From an uncultured Alphaproteobacteria bacterium (lineage in GTDB: Bacteria > Pseudomonadota > Alphaproteobacteria > RF32 > CAG-239), in the NCBI GenBank assembly GCA_944391485.1, contig CALXTQ010000020.1, forward strand, positions 1,849-65,848: DNA of 64,000 bases. The letters run 5' to 3'. Under the pieces are notes generated by a model. The model was not told where the DNA came from, ran no database searches, and saw only the letters and a list, made by a program, of their open reading frames with translations. The translations under genes were made by a program, and so were the position numbers. Positions 5,255-27,483 of the stretch are shown one piece after another; position 1 is the stretch's first letter; the number at the start of each line of letters is the position of its first letter.

Positions 5255-5356
5255 TATATTTCTCCTGTTTAGTCCGTTTGGTTAAAGTGGGACAAGTTGG
5301 CATAAATTCACTTTTAAGGGGATTATGTTAAATAATCCCCCGAATGTCAAGTCTTC

Positions 5357-5899
5357 TCAATTTTTGTAAAGCACCGCTCCGTTATCAAGCAATAGGTTGG
5401 CAACATCAAGCTCTATTCGCTCCAAGGCTAAGGTTAAGGCGGTTTCGCCTTGGATATTGAGCCAATTCACATCAACACCTTTATCTATCAACATTTGAAT
5501 AGTTTGTAATTTGGTATCATCTTCCATATTTTCGTTCAAAATAACGGACATAATAGCGTTATATCCGAATATATCGGTTCTATTGACTTCGCTTCCCTCG
5601 GCAATAAGAAAATCAAGAGGCTCTTTTTCCATACAGAAATAACAAGCCACCAAAAATAAACTAGCTCTGCGGCGATTGATTGAGGCATTTAGATTAAAAT
5701 TGTTGGATTTAATCAATTTTTTCAACTCACTGACCGAATTGATATCAATATTACCTTCGCTTTCAAAATTATACGGCGGATTAACCGGCGTATTCTTTAA
5801 TCTCTCTTCTATTTGTTTGATTTTTTCTTGGACTTCTGCCATTTCTTCAATGGTAATAAATTTAGAATAAGTTTTATCTTCGGGATTATACATTAACAT
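5357..5899 (-). CDS. Ankyrin-repeat protein (181 aa from Met-65 of the track ORF)
   Basis: The C-terminus has ANK repeats (GYNAIMSVILNENMEDDTKLQTIQMLIDKGVDVNWLNIQGETALTLALERIELDVANLLLDNGA). AAGGAG sits 6 nt upstream of ATG 5897-5899 (MLMYNPEDK). The upstream 64 codons of the track ORF look non-coding. Confidence 0.6.
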   Translation of the reverse strand: MLMYNPEDKTYSKFITIEEMAEVQEKIKQIEERLKNTPVNPPYNFESEGNIDINSVSELKKLIKSNNFNLNASINRRRASLFLVACYFCMEKEPLDFLIAEGSEVNRTDIFGYNAIMSVILNENMEDDTKLQTIQMLIDKGVDVNWLNIQGETALTLALERIELDVANLLLDNGAVLYKN

Positions 5900-6314
5900 T
5901 TTCACTCCTTGTCTGTTTTTCTTACAAGGATATTTATCGGAAATAAAACCTATTTTGTGATTTGGCAAAAAACAAACTTTGGCTAGATAAATACCTATGT
6001 AGCTGATGGCTATGTTTCGATTATAAACACGAATTGTCTGGGGTGAGGTGTGATGTGCGAGCATGACACCTCTTTTTGTTGGACAGCACACGGCGGACGG
6101 CTTTCTGATTTCTTTTTAATTCCCAGATGATTAAATCACACCTCAGAGGTTTGTTTTGTTTTATTTGAGGGCTATTTTAAGCTCAGAAAAAAGAAAGCTA
6201 TTTTAATTCTGGTTCTATTATAATAGTTCTTTTTTATATCTATTATAATACTATTATATGGGTTAAAATTTGCTCTAAAATCCTTGTCTGATAAGGAATT
6301 GAGCAATTTAATGA

Positions 6315-6458
6315 GGAAATATAGCTTTCCGATGGCGGAAATAACGGTTTCCGGAACTGGAAATATAGACTTCCCCAAGTGGAAATATAGATTTCCGTTT
6401 TTGAATTTCCGGAAATAACCGTTTCCGCAAGCTTTATAAGTGGAAATAACGATTTCCG
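6315..6458. repeat. Array of six iteron-like palindromic direct repeats (GGAAATA-N3/4-TTTCCG)
   Basis: Copies start at 6315, 6337, 6359, 6381, 6411 and 6442. The first four are spaced exactly 22 bp apart, the last two 30 and 31 bp. Each unit is an imperfect palindrome GGAAATAtagnTTTCCg. The array ends 80 bp upstream of the winged-helix gene at 6538. Confidence 0.7.
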
Positions 6459-6537
6459 CCCCTAATTTTGTTCAATTTAAAATCTCGTATTCTCCGCAAA
6501 TAAATATTTTCAGGACAAAAGTTTATAAGGAGAAAAC

Positions 6538-6951
6538 ATGAGCAAAAGTAAAGCTACATTATCTATTACCGAACGTCTATTATTGGACTTCATTAAATAT
6601 AAAACAAACAACAATCATAAATTCTTTATGGGGAATGATAAAATCGCCATGGCCTTGGGATTAACGGTAAATTCCGCCAAAGTGATGATAAACGGACTTA
6701 TCCGTGAAGGGTATCTTATCAAATCAATGGATACCCACGGCCGCAGAATATTAGAATTATCCGACAAACCATACTTAACCATCGCTTGTGTTGATTTAAG
6801 CAACGTTGATAAACGCATTATATTGCAAGAAGCCCTGAACTTTCAACGAGACGCCGAATACTTCCAAAAACAATACGAGTTTGAAAAAGCACGAGCCGAC
6901 AGACTTCTTGCCGAACTAACACAGATAAAGCTAATGTATAAAGCTAAGTAA
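6538..6951 (+). CDS. Small winged-helix DNA-binding protein (137 aa) with a C-terminal coiled coil; candidate iteron/operator-binding protein
   Basis: RBS AAGGAG 5 nt upstream. HTH-like segment IAMALGLTVNSAKVMINGLIREGYLIKSMDTHGRRILEL. The C-terminus is a charged helix (QKQYEFEKARADRLLAELTQIK). It lies directly downstream of the repeat array. Confidence 0.55.
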   Translation: MSKSKATLSITERLLLDFIKYKTNNNHKFFMGNDKIAMALGLTVNSAKVMINGLIREGYLIKSMDTHGRRILELSDKPYLTIACVDLSNVDKRIILQEALNFQRDAEYFQKQYEFEKARADRLLAELTQIKLMYKAK

Positions 6952-6974
6952 CCTTATAAATAAAGTTTAATTGT

Positions 6975-8150
6975 TTATATTCTGTCGCTATATGGAAGCG
7001 AATTGATATAATCTTCCATAAACTGCCAATCTGGAATATAGCCCTTGTCTGAATAAGTGTGATTATCATCTATAATTGGTTCACCTGTCTCATCTCTCTG
7101 GATTGGTAGTCGGAGAATATCTGACAAATACTTTTCTTCTGTAACTTTTCTTCCATAATCATATTTAAATCTATTTGCTAAAAGTATTGTTTGTAAAAAT
7201 AGATAAATTGACTTCGTTGCTATTTCTTCTGCTAATAATAATATTTTGGCAGAATCTCCAACAACACATCCTTCTGACTGAAAAGATACAAAACCAGCAG
7301 ACCCCGTCCTTGCAACAGTTAAGCACATTTTATCTGTTAATACATAACCTTTTTTTAGACAATATATTTTATCTATCTTTCCTAAGACACCGTTGTTTTC
7401 TTCACCACTTTGAACAGCGATAAGCAAGCCTTTGTTTTCTTCTATTTCTTCTTTTGTAATACCTTTGCCATTTAACATAGTAAACAAATCAGAAACTTTA
7501 AATTCCTCCCATTGTTCAATATTCAGCTCTTTATTTGTGTTATTTTTTATTTTTGTTGTAATTGGTTTATGATGTAAAGATTTAATATAATTTTCCATAA
7601 ATTCCCAATCAGGAATATATCCTTCGTTGGAATATCCCATAGATGTATTGATTATTGGCTTCTTTTCATCATCATATTGTATTGGTAGCTTGATGATAAT
7701 ATTTTTTGATTTATTCAAATCGTGTAATTTTCTTCCATAAGACCACTTGTAGCGTTCTCTGTTTATAATGGAACAAATAAACATAGCCCTAAAAAAATTC
7801 AATTCAAATTTGGGGTTACAAATGGTTTCATCGTGACTACTGGTAAATTTAATTGGCTGATAGTAAGCATTACAAACAGAACCATTATTAGTGATTGTTA
7901 TACAATTTCCTTCAAAGATTTTACCTTCTAGTGTATTATCATCTTGCCCTGTTTTATCGCTCAATTTAATACTTTCTATATCGCAATAATCGGTAACACC
8001 ATTATTTTCTGCCGTAGCCCCCAAAAATGGTATTGGATTATCAGATGGAAATGTTTCTATGGTTTCTGGTTTATTATTAAAATAGCCATTTTTCATATCA
8101 AATAAATCGGATAATTTAAATTCTTGCCATTCTTTTATATCAAGCCTCAT
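6975..8150 (-). CDS. hsdS: Type I restriction-modification specificity subunit HsdS
   Basis: 391 aa with two similar half-repeats (IKEWQEFKLSDLFDMKNG ... IEQWEEFKVSDLFTMLNGKG), typical of two-TRD S subunits. It overlaps the hsdM stop by 11 nt. Confidence 0.7.
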   Translation of the reverse strand: MRLDIKEWQEFKLSDLFDMKNGYFNNKPETIETFPSDNPIPFLGATAENNGVTDYCDIESIKLSDKTGQDDNTLEGKIFEGNCITITNNGSVCNAYYQPIKFTSSHDETICNPKFELNFFRAMFICSIINRERYKWSYGRKLHDLNKSKNIIIKLPIQYDDEKKPIINTSMGYSNEGYIPDWEFMENYIKSLHHKPITTKIKNNTNKELNIEQWEEFKVSDLFTMLNGKGITKEEIEENKGLLIAVQSGEENNGVLGKIDKIYCLKKGYVLTDKMCLTVARTGSAGFVSFQSEGCVVGDSAKILLLAEEIATKSIYLFLQTILLANRFKYDYGRKVTEEKYLSDILRLPIQRDETGEPIIDDNHTYSDKGYIPDWQFMEDYINSLPYSDRI

Positions 8151-10188: not shown

Positions 10189-11619
10189 TTACTTCCCTTC
10201 CATTTCCTTGGCTAGTTCGGAAACGAGTTTCCAGTTCTGGCTTTTGTAAGCTTCTAACAAGGGGAGATAGTAGCGAGAATTTTTGCCTTCTCCTATATAT
10301 GGTATTCTTCTGACGCCGCCGGCTTTATCTTCTTTTCGCATAGCCAGCAAGGTTGTATAAGATATGCCTAAAAATGCCGCGGTTTGTTTAATATTCAACC
10401 AATTTGAACGAGCGGCAATATCAAATGCTTCTTGTTTTTTAGCACTATCAAGGTCATTTAAATAAAACTCTGATAATTCTGCGGCGTAATCACTAAACCC
10501 ACTACTCTCTAATGCCTTTACAAAGGAGCGAATAGAATTACTCATAGTTTTAACAACATTTGCAGAAAATACAATCTGCTTGAAATTAACATGTTTTGTA
10601 AATGTAATATTCTTAACTCTGAGTTCATTCAAAAATATAACATTAACAATCTGACCATAATGAAAGTTTACATCAGAAAAGGATACTTTACCCCCAAAAA
10701 TTGTATTGCTAAATATAATTTTCAATTTAGATATATTAGATAATAAAAAATTTGCCTGTTCTGAAAAAGTACAATTTCTTAAAATAAGAGCTGAATAACA
10801 CCCTTTTTGTATTTTATCAATCTCAAAATTACCATTGAATATACAGTTTTCAAACTTTAACAAACTTATTACTGTTTGAAAATTTCTATTTAATCCCGTT
10901 TTCCAATAACTAACCCGACAATTAAAAATGCAATTTTTGAACATAAATGATTTATCTCTTAAAAATAAACGTTCAGCTCCGCTGAAAGCACAATTCTCAA
11001 AAATTACTGTTCTGATATCTACATAATCAATAAATCTGAAAAGATTATCATTTTCTTCACTTGAAGAAATATTCATATTTTTCAAATGCAAGCACAAATT
11101 ATTAAATCCTAATGATTTTAATTCTATATCAGAAAAAGGAGGTTCAAAAACAGACCGAACCTCTTGCTCTGCAAAACAATACTCTTCCTCAAAGTTTTCC
11201 AAAAACTTTTTTAATTTAGCTTCATCCTTTACTATAAAATTACGATCATATCCTCTTTGGGCGTATAACTTTACTTTCTCGGACGGCAAATCAGGTTGTT
11301 TTAAATTGTAATTGAATATTGTCGCTAAAATGCACAAGAATGACTTAAGTGCATCTGCATAGTAAGGGTAATATTGGTCTAAATATTCATTTTTTACCTT
11401 TATTGGAGCTTCTTTTTTAGAAGGAAGGCTAAAAAGAAAATTTTTTACTGATTGAAAAACTTTATAATTATTTCCTGTTTCTTTTATATACTCATCATAT
11501 TGAGCCATTAAATCCTTGATGGAACTACCGGCATTTTCAATATCCGGTTCTCTTAATCTTAAAAAAACATCTGACAATCTCATCATATACAGTAGGCAAA
11601 ATTCTTTAAGCTGTTCCAT
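10189..11619 (-). CDS. Pentapeptide-repeat-like protein with a C-terminal excisionase/MerR-type HTH (HTH_17-like)
   Basis: The central region has degenerate A(D/N)(L/F)xx-type repeats (ENCAFSGAERLFLRDKSFMFKNCIFNCRVSYW...FENCIFNGNFEID...LRNCTFSEQANFLLSNISKLKIIFSNTIFGGKVSFSDVNFHYG). The C-terminus is NIKQTAAFLGISYTTLLAMRKEDKAGGVRRIPYIGEGKNSRYYL. Confidence 0.5.
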   Translation of the reverse strand: MEQLKEFCLLYMMRLSDVFLRLREPDIENAGSSIKDLMAQYDEYIKETGNNYKVFQSVKNFLFSLPSKKEAPIKVKNEYLDQYYPYYADALKSFLCILATIFNYNLKQPDLPSEKVKLYAQRGYDRNFIVKDEAKLKKFLENFEEEYCFAEQEVRSVFEPPFSDIELKSLGFNNLCLHLKNMNISSSEENDNLFRFIDYVDIRTVIFENCAFSGAERLFLRDKSFMFKNCIFNCRVSYWKTGLNRNFQTVISLLKFENCIFNGNFEIDKIQKGCYSALILRNCTFSEQANFLLSNISKLKIIFSNTIFGGKVSFSDVNFHYGQIVNVIFLNELRVKNITFTKHVNFKQIVFSANVVKTMSNSIRSFVKALESSGFSDYAAELSEFYLNDLDSAKKQEAFDIAARSNWLNIKQTAAFLGISYTTLLAMRKEDKAGGVRRIPYIGEGKNSRYYLPLLEAYKSQNWKLVSELAKEMEGK

Positions 11620-27075: not shown

Positions 27076-27483
27076 CTAAAACGAGGTCGTTTCAATTATC
27101 ATTTTTGAGCCCGGAAACCCGAATAGAAGTTGATCTTCGCAGGGACAAACCCTTCCAGTTCTTCCGCAGGTGATTAAACCTCTCAGTACAAAAGGCTTTT
27201 GGCTGTATTTCAGCCCCGCACCGTTATGATTGTTAAGGGTTTTCTGCTTTTGACATTGCTCCCACAGCTCTTGCGAAATCAGCGGCGGATAAACATGTTT
27301 AATAATTCCTCTTTTGGTTTTCATCTCACCATAATGAAAGGGATTGTCCAATATATAATAGATGCTGGAATTGACATGCCACCGGCGGGTGTCGGGTTTT
27401 ATAATTGCGTATTTAAGGGAATAGTGAATTTTGATGAAAGTATTGTTCCGGAAAAGAGCGTGTTGGAATATTTTACCATGCAA
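27076..27483 (-). pseudogene. 3' fragment of a large serine recombinase gene (recombinase domain plus zinc-ribbon region only)
   Basis: LDNPFHYGEM...PPLISQELWEQCQ...FVLRGLITCGRTGRV resembles the recombinase/Zn-ribbon region of large serine recombinases. The N-terminal catalytic resolvase domain is missing, and a perfect 15-bp inverted repeat (27492-27537) lies just upstream. Confidence 0.5.

Follow-up and report, generated by a model that had tools for sequence, protein, structure and literature searches.

A conserved array of iteron-type repeats beside a small initiator-like winged-helix protein: a possible origin module in a defence island of uncultured gut Alphaproteobacteria

What does a phased array of short DNA repeats do when it lies within a bacterial chromosome, directly upstream of a gene for a small DNA-binding protein? 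The question is raised by a 64,000-nucleotide stretch of contig CALXTQ010000020.1 (hereafter the window) from an uncultured Alphaproteobacteria bacterium. At positions 6315-6458 of the window, six 17-bp units of the form GGAAATA-N4-TTTCCG precede a gene (6538-6951, + strand) that encodes a 137-amino-acid winged-helix protein. An iteron array with a cognate initiator-like protein is a known kind of system; this particular family is uncharacterised. We favour an iteron-type replication origin (oriV) with a mini-initiator that would also regulate its own synthesis, set in a restriction-modification (R-M)/defence island, and put the probability of this reading at about 45%. Such an island has been found so far only in uncultured, mostly gut-associated Alphaproteobacteria.

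All six units share the orientation of the downstream gene, and the array covers the region 80-223 bp 5' of its ATG at 6538. The units are iteron 1 (6315-6331, GGAAATATAGCTTTCCG), iteron 2 (6337-6353, GGAAATAACGGTTTCCG), iteron 3 (6359-6375, GGAAATATAGACTTCCC), iteron 4 (6381-6397, GGAAATATAGATTTCCG), iteron 5 (6411-6427, GGAAATAACCGTTTCCG) and iteron 6 (6442-6458, GGAAATAACGATTTCCG), all on the + strand, with start-to-start distances of 22, 22, 22, 30 and 31 bp. Five of them contain GGAAATANNNNTTTCCG exactly, and the third, whose right arm is degenerate, has two mismatches. A first-pass annotation of the window had reported iteron-like repeats at 22-bp intervals before a small protein, which is borne out by six units of which the first four are spaced by exactly 22 bp. 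It had also called the repeats palindromic. An internal GGAAA...TTTCC dyad is present, but the palindrome is only partial: the asymmetric left arm GGAAATAW is conserved as well as the right arm, and the dyad symmetry is mostly lost in the units of a sister clade. The units are therefore better described as direct repeats with internal dyad symmetry.

Scanning the window for the unit with up to two mismatches gave 12 matches, whereas 100 shuffles averaged 4.55 and never exceeded 10, so the array did not arise by chance; 10 of the 12, both strands counted, are array units. Near-matches aside, no repeat unit was found outside the array in the 64-kb window, and none outside the arrays in ~0.5 Mb of related loci. 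The sole unrelated near-match outside the array (GGAAAAAGCCTTTTCCG at 61945-61961, one mismatch) lies in the 50% GC part of the window and is probably an unrelated hairpin. Exact GGAAATANNNNTTTCC matches across the 44 fetched loci all fall in an equivalent array 5' of a homologous gene, always on the gene strand. A dispersed element of the repetitive extragenic palindromic (REP) type was excluded on this ground, the unit being confined to arrays in the window and the 44 loci.

The geometry of the array is kept over long evolutionary distances. Spacings of 22, 22, 22, 30 and 31/32 bp occur in 20 of 22 related GGAAATA-type loci, and at least 57 of 63 independent metagenome loci retain the same 22-22-22-30-31/32 arrangement. 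Column identity in the left and right arms is 93% and 93.5%, respectively, compared with 66% in the centres and spacers. The gene has a ratio of nonsynonymous to synonymous divergence (dN/dS) of 0.06-0.11, and dS between clades is 1.3-2.6, so that synonymous sites are saturated. Neutral DNA would be randomised at such distances; array and gene must therefore be under constraint. These sequence comparisons indicate a conserved and functional module. The label 'vestigial', given to it in the first-pass annotation, cannot be kept for a module whose protein, repeat arms and spacing are so strongly constrained across the clades.

Each diverged clade of the protein possesses its own repeat unit at the same positions, together with changes in the recognition helix at positions 45, 46, 49 and 50. 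The clade of the window, L002, L034 and L035 combines six GGAAATA...TTTCC units, spaced by 22, 22, 22, 30 and 31/32 bp, with the helix (N/S)S(A/T)KV(M/L). In L029-L031, whose proteins are 49% identical, six units of the form TGAACATA-N4-yCTTC at 22, 22, 21, 31 and 31 bp go with the helix NTAKTF. L045 (35% identity) pairs five copies of GGAGTTATACATATCC with TTAKQL, and L048 (30% identity) six copies of GACAATATCCATTGTC with GTTKEL. There are thus four or more specificity classes with matching recognition-helix changes, and the relative orientation of array and gene is fixed in all loci. Because clade-specific units pair with recognition-helix changes at a fixed geometry, covariation strongly supports the earlier proposal that the adjacent winged-helix protein binds the repeats, and the array is most probably its cognate site. 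The same comparison disposes of an array of RNA hairpins: sister-clade units (TGAACATA...CTTC) lose the complementarity of their arms yet retain position and spacing. Clustered regularly interspaced short palindromic repeat (CRISPR)-like repeats and known RNA families were also ruled out, with no Rfam match in 5300-7300.

Naturally shortened modules occur as well. L017, L094 and L095 have an intact gene and only the four promoter-proximal repeats; L017 and L095 adjoin an aldose epimerase gene. L027 combines degenerate repeats with a pseudogene, and L033 has only a gene fragment.

The open reading frame at 6538-6951 is real, as judged from an AAGGAG ribosome-binding site at 6527-6532, 155 homologues found at E ≤ 0.001 in a word-indexed search (65-98% identity among the matches listed) and the low dN/dS. 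A hidden Markov model (HMM) scan of 1.84 billion representative sequences gave 82 members at E ≤ 0.001, many of them 170-273 residues long with a longer coiled coil and a tail. The family is small and narrow, and all identifiable sources of homologues are uncultured Alphaproteobacteria from human and roe deer gut. An AlphaFold2 model (mean predicted local distance difference test score 78.7) shows a winged helix composed of helices 10-22, 33-40 and 44-56 and strands 60-64 and 70-74, followed by a single long helix at 92-136 that is a putative coiled-coil dimerisation element.

Classification of the protein by HMM, which the first-pass annotation had called for, gave HTH_36 (PF13730) as the only Pfam match, at 22.5 bits (E 1e-4) against a cut-off of 25. 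Of 38 diverse family members, 31 matched HTH_36 at E ≤ 0.01 (best E 3.3e-8), compared with five for DnaD_N and seven, weakly, for MarR. The family thus appears by sequence to belong to HTH_36, the window protein alone falling just below the threshold. Genes for HTH_36 proteins also occur in Stx phages, in a variable region immediately 5' of cI (PMC8951638). When family members were compared with 38,880 phage protein families (PHROGs), almost all matches were to replication initiators: phrog_345 in 21 members, phrog_270 in 18 (best E 4e-8), and further phrog_428, 678, 8102 and 391 and the DnaD-like phrog_186. A MarR regulator PHROG was matched by only two. Searches of curated NCBIfam models and of PDB sequences yielded noise only; the window protein had no Phage_rep_O match in Pfam, and PADLOC did not recognise it as a member of a defence system.

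Structural comparison is less informative. The fold search was headed by generic winged helices, with MarR and RbkR regulators closest in the PDB, and also returned N-terminal domains of RepA_N initiators (4pql, 4pt7, 5kbj), DnaD (2v79) and AspA (5k5q, E 6e-3); the fold alone does not discriminate. Similarity to PDB entries is limited to the winged helix, the root-mean-square deviation being ~9-13 Å over full-length alignments to MarR regulators of the MepR/AdcR type. The modelled architecture, an N-terminal winged helix plus one C-terminal helix, differs from that of MarR autoregulators in having no flanking dimerisation helices on both sides.

Some of the longer relatives (P0141, P0143 and P0149, 243-273 residues) carry EEQL(E/D)(M/I)FP in their C-terminal tails, which resembles the beta sliding-clamp motif QL[SD]LF. 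A clamp-binding motif QL[ED][MI]FP was considered and set aside as merely a lead: it occurs in only 3 of 81 representatives and is absent from the window protein. Many other long relatives have a different motif, LExLFxxxG(L/V)(S/T)xEQ(L/I), after the coiled coil.

A second conserved element lies on the far side of the array, within the 638-bp intergenic region that separates the ATG of the winged-helix (HTH) gene from that of a divergent ankyrin-repeat gene (5899). It is AT-rich, extends from 6197 to 6259 and contains direct repeats of CTATTATAATA at 6215, 6240 and 6251. The 40-bp segment at 6219 has 10% GC. Ranked by instability against bases 1-34000 it reaches the 99.96th percentile, and it is one of the three 40-bp stretches with the lowest stability in the 34-kb island. 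The linker between this element and iteron 1 measures 54-55 bp, a length conserved in both the GGAAATA and the TGAACATA clades. By composition and position the element is a candidate DNA-unwinding element, although it could instead be promoter DNA. It is unchanged in clades whose iterons have changed and should therefore have a constant reader, either host machinery or the physics of DNA itself. On the gene side of the array, a further block (6466-6483, +, TTTTGTTCAATTTAAAAT) starts 24 bp downstream of where iteron 6 starts, which leaves ~72 bp to the ATG. Related GGAAATA-type loci have the TTTTGTTCAA block always at 24 bp from the iteron 6 start, with the ATG ~72 bp further on; an UP-like element or a host-factor site would be our guesses for its role.

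Phased direct repeats, a fixed link to a meltable element, an adjacent gene for the cognate protein and an initiator-like domain together match the anatomy of an origin. The module is also self-contained, since in L019 two genes are inserted between the ankyrin promoter and a short conserved unit (see below), and everything from the short unit through the AT-rich element and the iterons to the gene is left as an undivided block. The origin half of the first-pass proposal of a replication or partition origin is thus our leading hypothesis, and it appears to gain support from the HTH_36/initiator affinity of the domain and from the unstable element next to the array.

As an origin, the module might work as follows. 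The 137-residue protein would dimerise through its long C-terminal helix, and its recognition helices would read GGAAATA and TTTCC, the arms of each 17-bp unit, the arm centres being about one helical turn apart. With the units placed at approximately 2, 2, 2, 3 and 3 helical turns, bound dimers would sit on roughly one face of the DNA and could form a cooperative, wrapped nucleoprotein complex, as in iteron initiators and lambda O. Such a complex would stress the unstable AT-rich repeats 55 bp upstream, which would serve as the unwinding element, and binding to a weak seventh copy over the core promoter would allow the protein to tune its own expression. In this scheme dimerisation, wrapping of the DNA, opening of the AT-rich element, the recruitment of replication proteins from the host and replication itself are steps that we infer.

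Comparison with known replicons places the module near several of them. One group is the HTH_36 initiators of pKL1 and of the Paracoccus plasmids pAES1, pAES7, pMARC3, pMOS2, pYEE7 and pYEE8, which share the Pfam domain and are very small. HTH_36 proteins are an initiator class of small alphaproteobacterial plasmids, with iteron-like repeats 5' of rep (PMC3832669, PMC6209633). Sites directly 5' of the gene (PMC3832669) and hosts that include Alphaproteobacteria are thus common to both. The Escherichia coli plasmid pKL1 (1549 bp) has a single annotated protein, an HTH_36 protein of 158 amino acids that is regarded as its Rep (PMC3832669), so small size is no argument against an initiator, and the earlier objection that the window protein is too small for a RepA does not stand. 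Beyond the shared Pfam domain, pKL1 Rep and the window protein have no pairwise similarity, and their domain order differs, the winged helix being C-terminal in the former and N-terminal in the latter. Two to three repeats or inverted repeats have been reported for HTH_36 plasmids, as against six phased units in the window, and these plasmids are autonomous whereas the window module is chromosomal.

Iteron-type theta replicons with Rep_3/TrfA initiators (pPS10, pSC101, F ori2, P1 oriR, R6K gamma and RK2 oriV) have these features in common with the module: several direct repeats of 17-22 bp phased at ~22 bp, adjacent AT-rich short direct repeats, an initiator gene immediately beside them, a weak extra copy near the promoter, and co-evolution of initiator and iterons. 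The array has the form by which iteron replicons are defined, at least three direct repeats of ~17-22 bp at about two helical turns. Differences are also plain. Rep_3/TrfA initiators have two winged helices in 230-380 residues, compared with one winged helix plus a helix in 137, and they bind iterons as monomers, whereas the internal dyad symmetry of the window units suggests dimers. Unlike these replicons, the window module has a fixed 4+1+1 spacing, is chromosomal with no extrachromosomal member found, and contains no DnaA box at up to one mismatch. DnaA boxes are common in iteron origins and not universal.

Lambda O with ori-lambda, together with O-like and DnaD-like phage initiators (PHROGs 270, 345, 428 and 678), offers a third comparison, sharing the N-terminal winged helix and providing the best PHROG matches. 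In the O-some, several dyad-symmetric iterons beside an AT-rich region are bound by dimers to form a wrapped complex. The partial dyad symmetry of the window units and the C-terminal helix likewise suggest a dimer per unit, nearer to lambda O than to the monomer-binding Rep_3 proteins. The match of the window protein to O-type proteins is confined to the winged helix and is weak (PHROGs 345, 678 and 391). In contrast to lambda O, the protein has no C-terminal domain to recruit a helicase loader and no Phage_rep_O match, the iterons lie 5' of the gene and not inside it, partner replication genes are absent, and the context is not that of a phage.

The setting in which the module is found bears on all readings. 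The first ~33,000 bases of the window have ~30% GC, and the remainder, with housekeeping-type genes, ~50%. The low-GC part is a defence-type island with an McrB-like AAA protein and its partner, type I hsdS and hsdM, two Fic proteins, an Mrr-like nuclease and several ankyrin-repeat proteins. The island also encodes recombinases (a small tyrosine and a large serine recombinase, and resolvases), a mobile context that would suit an origin. The usual layout, seen down to ~30% protein identity in most loci with sufficient flank, is an ankyrin gene (-), a long intergenic region and the HTH gene (+), and most such loci have recombinases and R-M systems around the module. Exceptions are L038/L039, with a small integrase gene directly upstream, and L029-L031, with other genes. 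The wider frame runs from a small tyrosine recombinase through DUF3768, an ankyrin gene, variable genes and a second ankyrin gene to the HTH gene, and continues with locus-specific R-M genes, a pentapeptide/HTH_17 protein, two small proteins and the large serine recombinase. When the remaining small proteins conserved in the island (DUF3768 and families 8, 10, 11, 12 and 7) were compared with PHROGs, no function emerged, and in particular no helicase, loader, primase or ParA.

Some contigs carry the module twice. OLZF01000004.1 (L050/L071) has two complete paralogous modules 117 kb apart, and OPXH01000180 (L052/L064) two that are convergent and ~25 kb apart. Each of the paired modules consists of small tyrosine recombinase, DUF3768, two ankyrin genes, intergenic region and HTH gene; all have GGAAATA...TTTCC arms, and their HTH proteins are ~77-81% and 96-98% identical to the window protein.

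Several observations weigh against an origin. Every module context observed is a chromosomal island. Searches of 72,556 plasmids, 50,697 phage records and IMG/VR contigs turned up no relative of the protein, and none of 45 complete short contigs was a circular contig with the module. Two modules with the same arms on one chromosomal contig would be expected to cross-react if they were active iteron replicons. The protein is made up of a DNA-binding domain and a single helix, with nothing further that might recruit a helicase, and its HTH_36 score lies under the Pfam cut-off. No DnaA box (TTATCCACA, up to one mismatch) was detected in 5900-6540. In L017 the AT-rich element is missing along with the distal repeats and the gene is intact, so retention of the gene does not require the putative unwinding element. 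A replicon model also leaves the conserved proximity of the ankyrin gene unexplained. Excision of the island is doubtful in the window, where the large serine recombinase is evidently a disrupted pseudogene, being represented by two separated fragments. These fragments (22794-23093 and 27127-27375, - strand) correspond, with 95-97% identity, to recombinase residues 440-539 and 218-300; L016 and L018 have the recombinase intact, and in the window the fragments are split by two higher-GC ankyrin genes (23225-26250). A more specific form of the origin reading, a working chromosomal device and no relic of plasmid maintenance, which fires locally in situ or on an excised circle and so amplifies or mobilises the adjacent R-M/defence slot, we consider unlikely.

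The strongest competitor is purely transcriptional. The protein may be an island-specific autoregulator, possibly acting also on the divergent ankyrin gene or on a short transcript, with the six units as a multi-operator array and the AT-rich repeats as mere promoter or UP-like DNA. The promoter-like motif RATAAATAT lies exactly 39 nt 5' of both the ankyrin ATG at 5899 (5930-5938, -) and the HTH ATG at 6538 (6499-6507, +). A third copy (5986-5994, +) opens the short unit, and the motif is rare 5' of other island genes. A sigma-70 consensus scan revealed no convincing promoter for the HTH gene, and promoter positions were deduced from conserved motifs; by this criterion RATAAATAT is probably a core-promoter element shared by the ankyrin and HTH genes. 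In the clade of the window, a degenerate seventh copy of the unit (6496-6511, +, GCAAATAAATATTTTC, two mismatches) overlaps the motif and is a candidate autoregulatory site over the core promoter, and in L045 the last repeat abuts the motif.

A regulator would also fit the generic winged helix with its MarR and RbkR neighbours in the PDB, the occurrence of HTH_36 in regulators as well (PMC3832669), the chromosomal location in every case, the divergent ankyrin gene in most of the family, the retention of the gene by shortened arrays without the AT-rich part, and the presence of two modules on one chromosome with no obvious trouble. Against this, none of the six strong sites covers the putative core promoter, from which they are 40-190 bp distant on the 5' side. 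There is no regulon, since no more sites occur in the 64 kb or the related loci, and genes can be inserted between the array and the ankyrin promoter. PHROG and Pfam point to initiators and not to repressors (21, 18 and 12 members versus 2), and an operator needs no fixed 54-55 bp link to an extremely unstable conserved element. A role as an R-M controller (C-protein) was ruled out, as the downstream cargo differs in type and orientation. We regard a purely transcriptional function as possible and somewhat doubtful. The readings are not fully exclusive, and iteron initiators normally autoregulate as well.

A partition role is improbable. It would make the array a centromere-like site and the protein its binding adaptor, of the TubR/tubC, ParR/parC or AspA type, with a motor encoded elsewhere that segregates or positions the island or its excised form. 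Classic parC/tubC loci likewise place a phased array 5' of the gene for a small DNA-binding protein that acts as a dimer; the winged helix recurs in TubR and in AspA, the latter among our fold matches (E 6e-3), and the long coiled coil could act as a scaffold in the manner of KfrA. KfrA (IncP/IncU) likewise joins an N-terminal winged helix to a long coiled-coil tail and binds repeats at its own promoter, but it has a single operator where the window has a six-unit phased array beside an AT-rich element. The window protein gave no Pfam match to KfrA_N, ParR or TubR-type families at E ≤ 10, and its sequence affinity is to initiators. In no clade is a nucleoside triphosphatase (NTPase) of the ParA, ParM or TubZ type conserved beside the module, which leaves little support for the partition adaptor suggested in the first-pass annotation, and an island integrated in the chromosome has no need of partition.

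An architectural or recombination accessory role, in which the protein-coated array bends DNA for excision, inversion or exchange of the R-M cassette, is very unlikely in our view. Small tyrosine recombinase and resolvase/invertase genes are conserved nearby, variable R-M cargo begins within the last codons of the gene, and the module of the window is oriented differently from those of L017/L095 with respect to a flanking aldose epimerase gene. The array is, however, ~500 bp from the cargo junction and on the opposite side of the gene, no inverted repeats of the recombinase core type flank it, the mutual orientation of array and gene is constant in all loci, and known recombination directionality factors are neither HTH_36 proteins nor initiator-like. 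The weakest possibility, that a truncated initiator and chromosomal iterons titrate or handcuff a related incoming replicon as a form of island defence, would suit the 137-residue clade without the C-terminal tails of its 170-273-residue relatives and the position among R-M and McrBC-like defence genes, but is highly improbable given that longer-tailed relatives have the same island context and the same array and that no free plasmid or phage with a related initiator or iterons was found.

The neighbouring features show how the module is embedded. The divergent ankyrin-repeat gene (5360-5899, - strand) encodes 180 amino acids from the ATG at 5899. Gene callers lengthen it to 235-244 residues (5357-6091, -) across conserved intergenic elements; we favour the 180-residue form, which conservation, an AAGGAG before the ATG at 5899 and its presence in other clades suggest to be the correct one. 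Between the ankyrin gene and the AT-rich element lies the short unit (5986-6077, +). Its parts are promoter-like GATAAATA at 5986, a small hairpin on the 5' side, a G+C hairpin (6045-6072) and a T5 run, and as a whole it resembles a small transcript closed by a terminator. No Rfam family matched it. Its position is conserved between clades and its sequence is not, and it accompanies array and gene: at the corresponding place L002, L006, L034, L036, L045 and L048 have a like arrangement with unrelated hairpins, L048 in several copies. A consensus RNA structure was sought and not obtained, the alignment being uninformative and the terminator hairpin differing in sequence in each clade.

Downstream, closely related loci (compare L009-L032) diverge within the last 5-8 HTH codons, after ...ELTQ(I/L)KL (~6925-6975 in the window). 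Beyond the 3' end of the HTH gene each locus has a different R-M system, in a slot that extends to the pentapeptide/HTH_17 gene (10189-11619); in the window it contains hsdS and hsdM and no hsdR. Elsewhere in the island, the cargo includes a class II aminoacyl-tRNA synthetase-like domain (tRNA-synt_2) fused to thymidylate kinase (17171-19027, -) and a class I lysyl-tRNA synthetase (20992-22635, +) that adjoins a peptidase S51 and an AAA_28 protein, an unusual cargo for a defence island.

Several features set the module apart: the protein is very small, the 4+1+1 geometry is fixed, a single scaffold carries at least four recognition codes, and every module seen lies in a chromosome, bordering an R-M cassette slot of an uncultured lineage from the gut. 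Under either of the two leading readings it is a well-defined and readily testable protein-DNA pair, not a breakthrough. If the protein is a regulator only, it would be a clean natural case of specificity co-evolution at a fixed six-site geometry with at least four DNA codes, useful for deriving rules of winged-helix recognition. As a working origin, the module would establish a minimal type of iteron initiator with one winged helix and a dimerising helix, its native replicon would be the first genetic handle for a never-cultured clade of gut Alphaproteobacteria, and replication would be tied to a chromosomal slot in which R-M systems are swapped. Should it also fire locally, it would represent the smallest class of iteron initiator known (137 residues, winged helix plus coiled coil) and an origin-coupled 'cargo slot' that organises the turnover of defence genes in gut Alphaproteobacteria.

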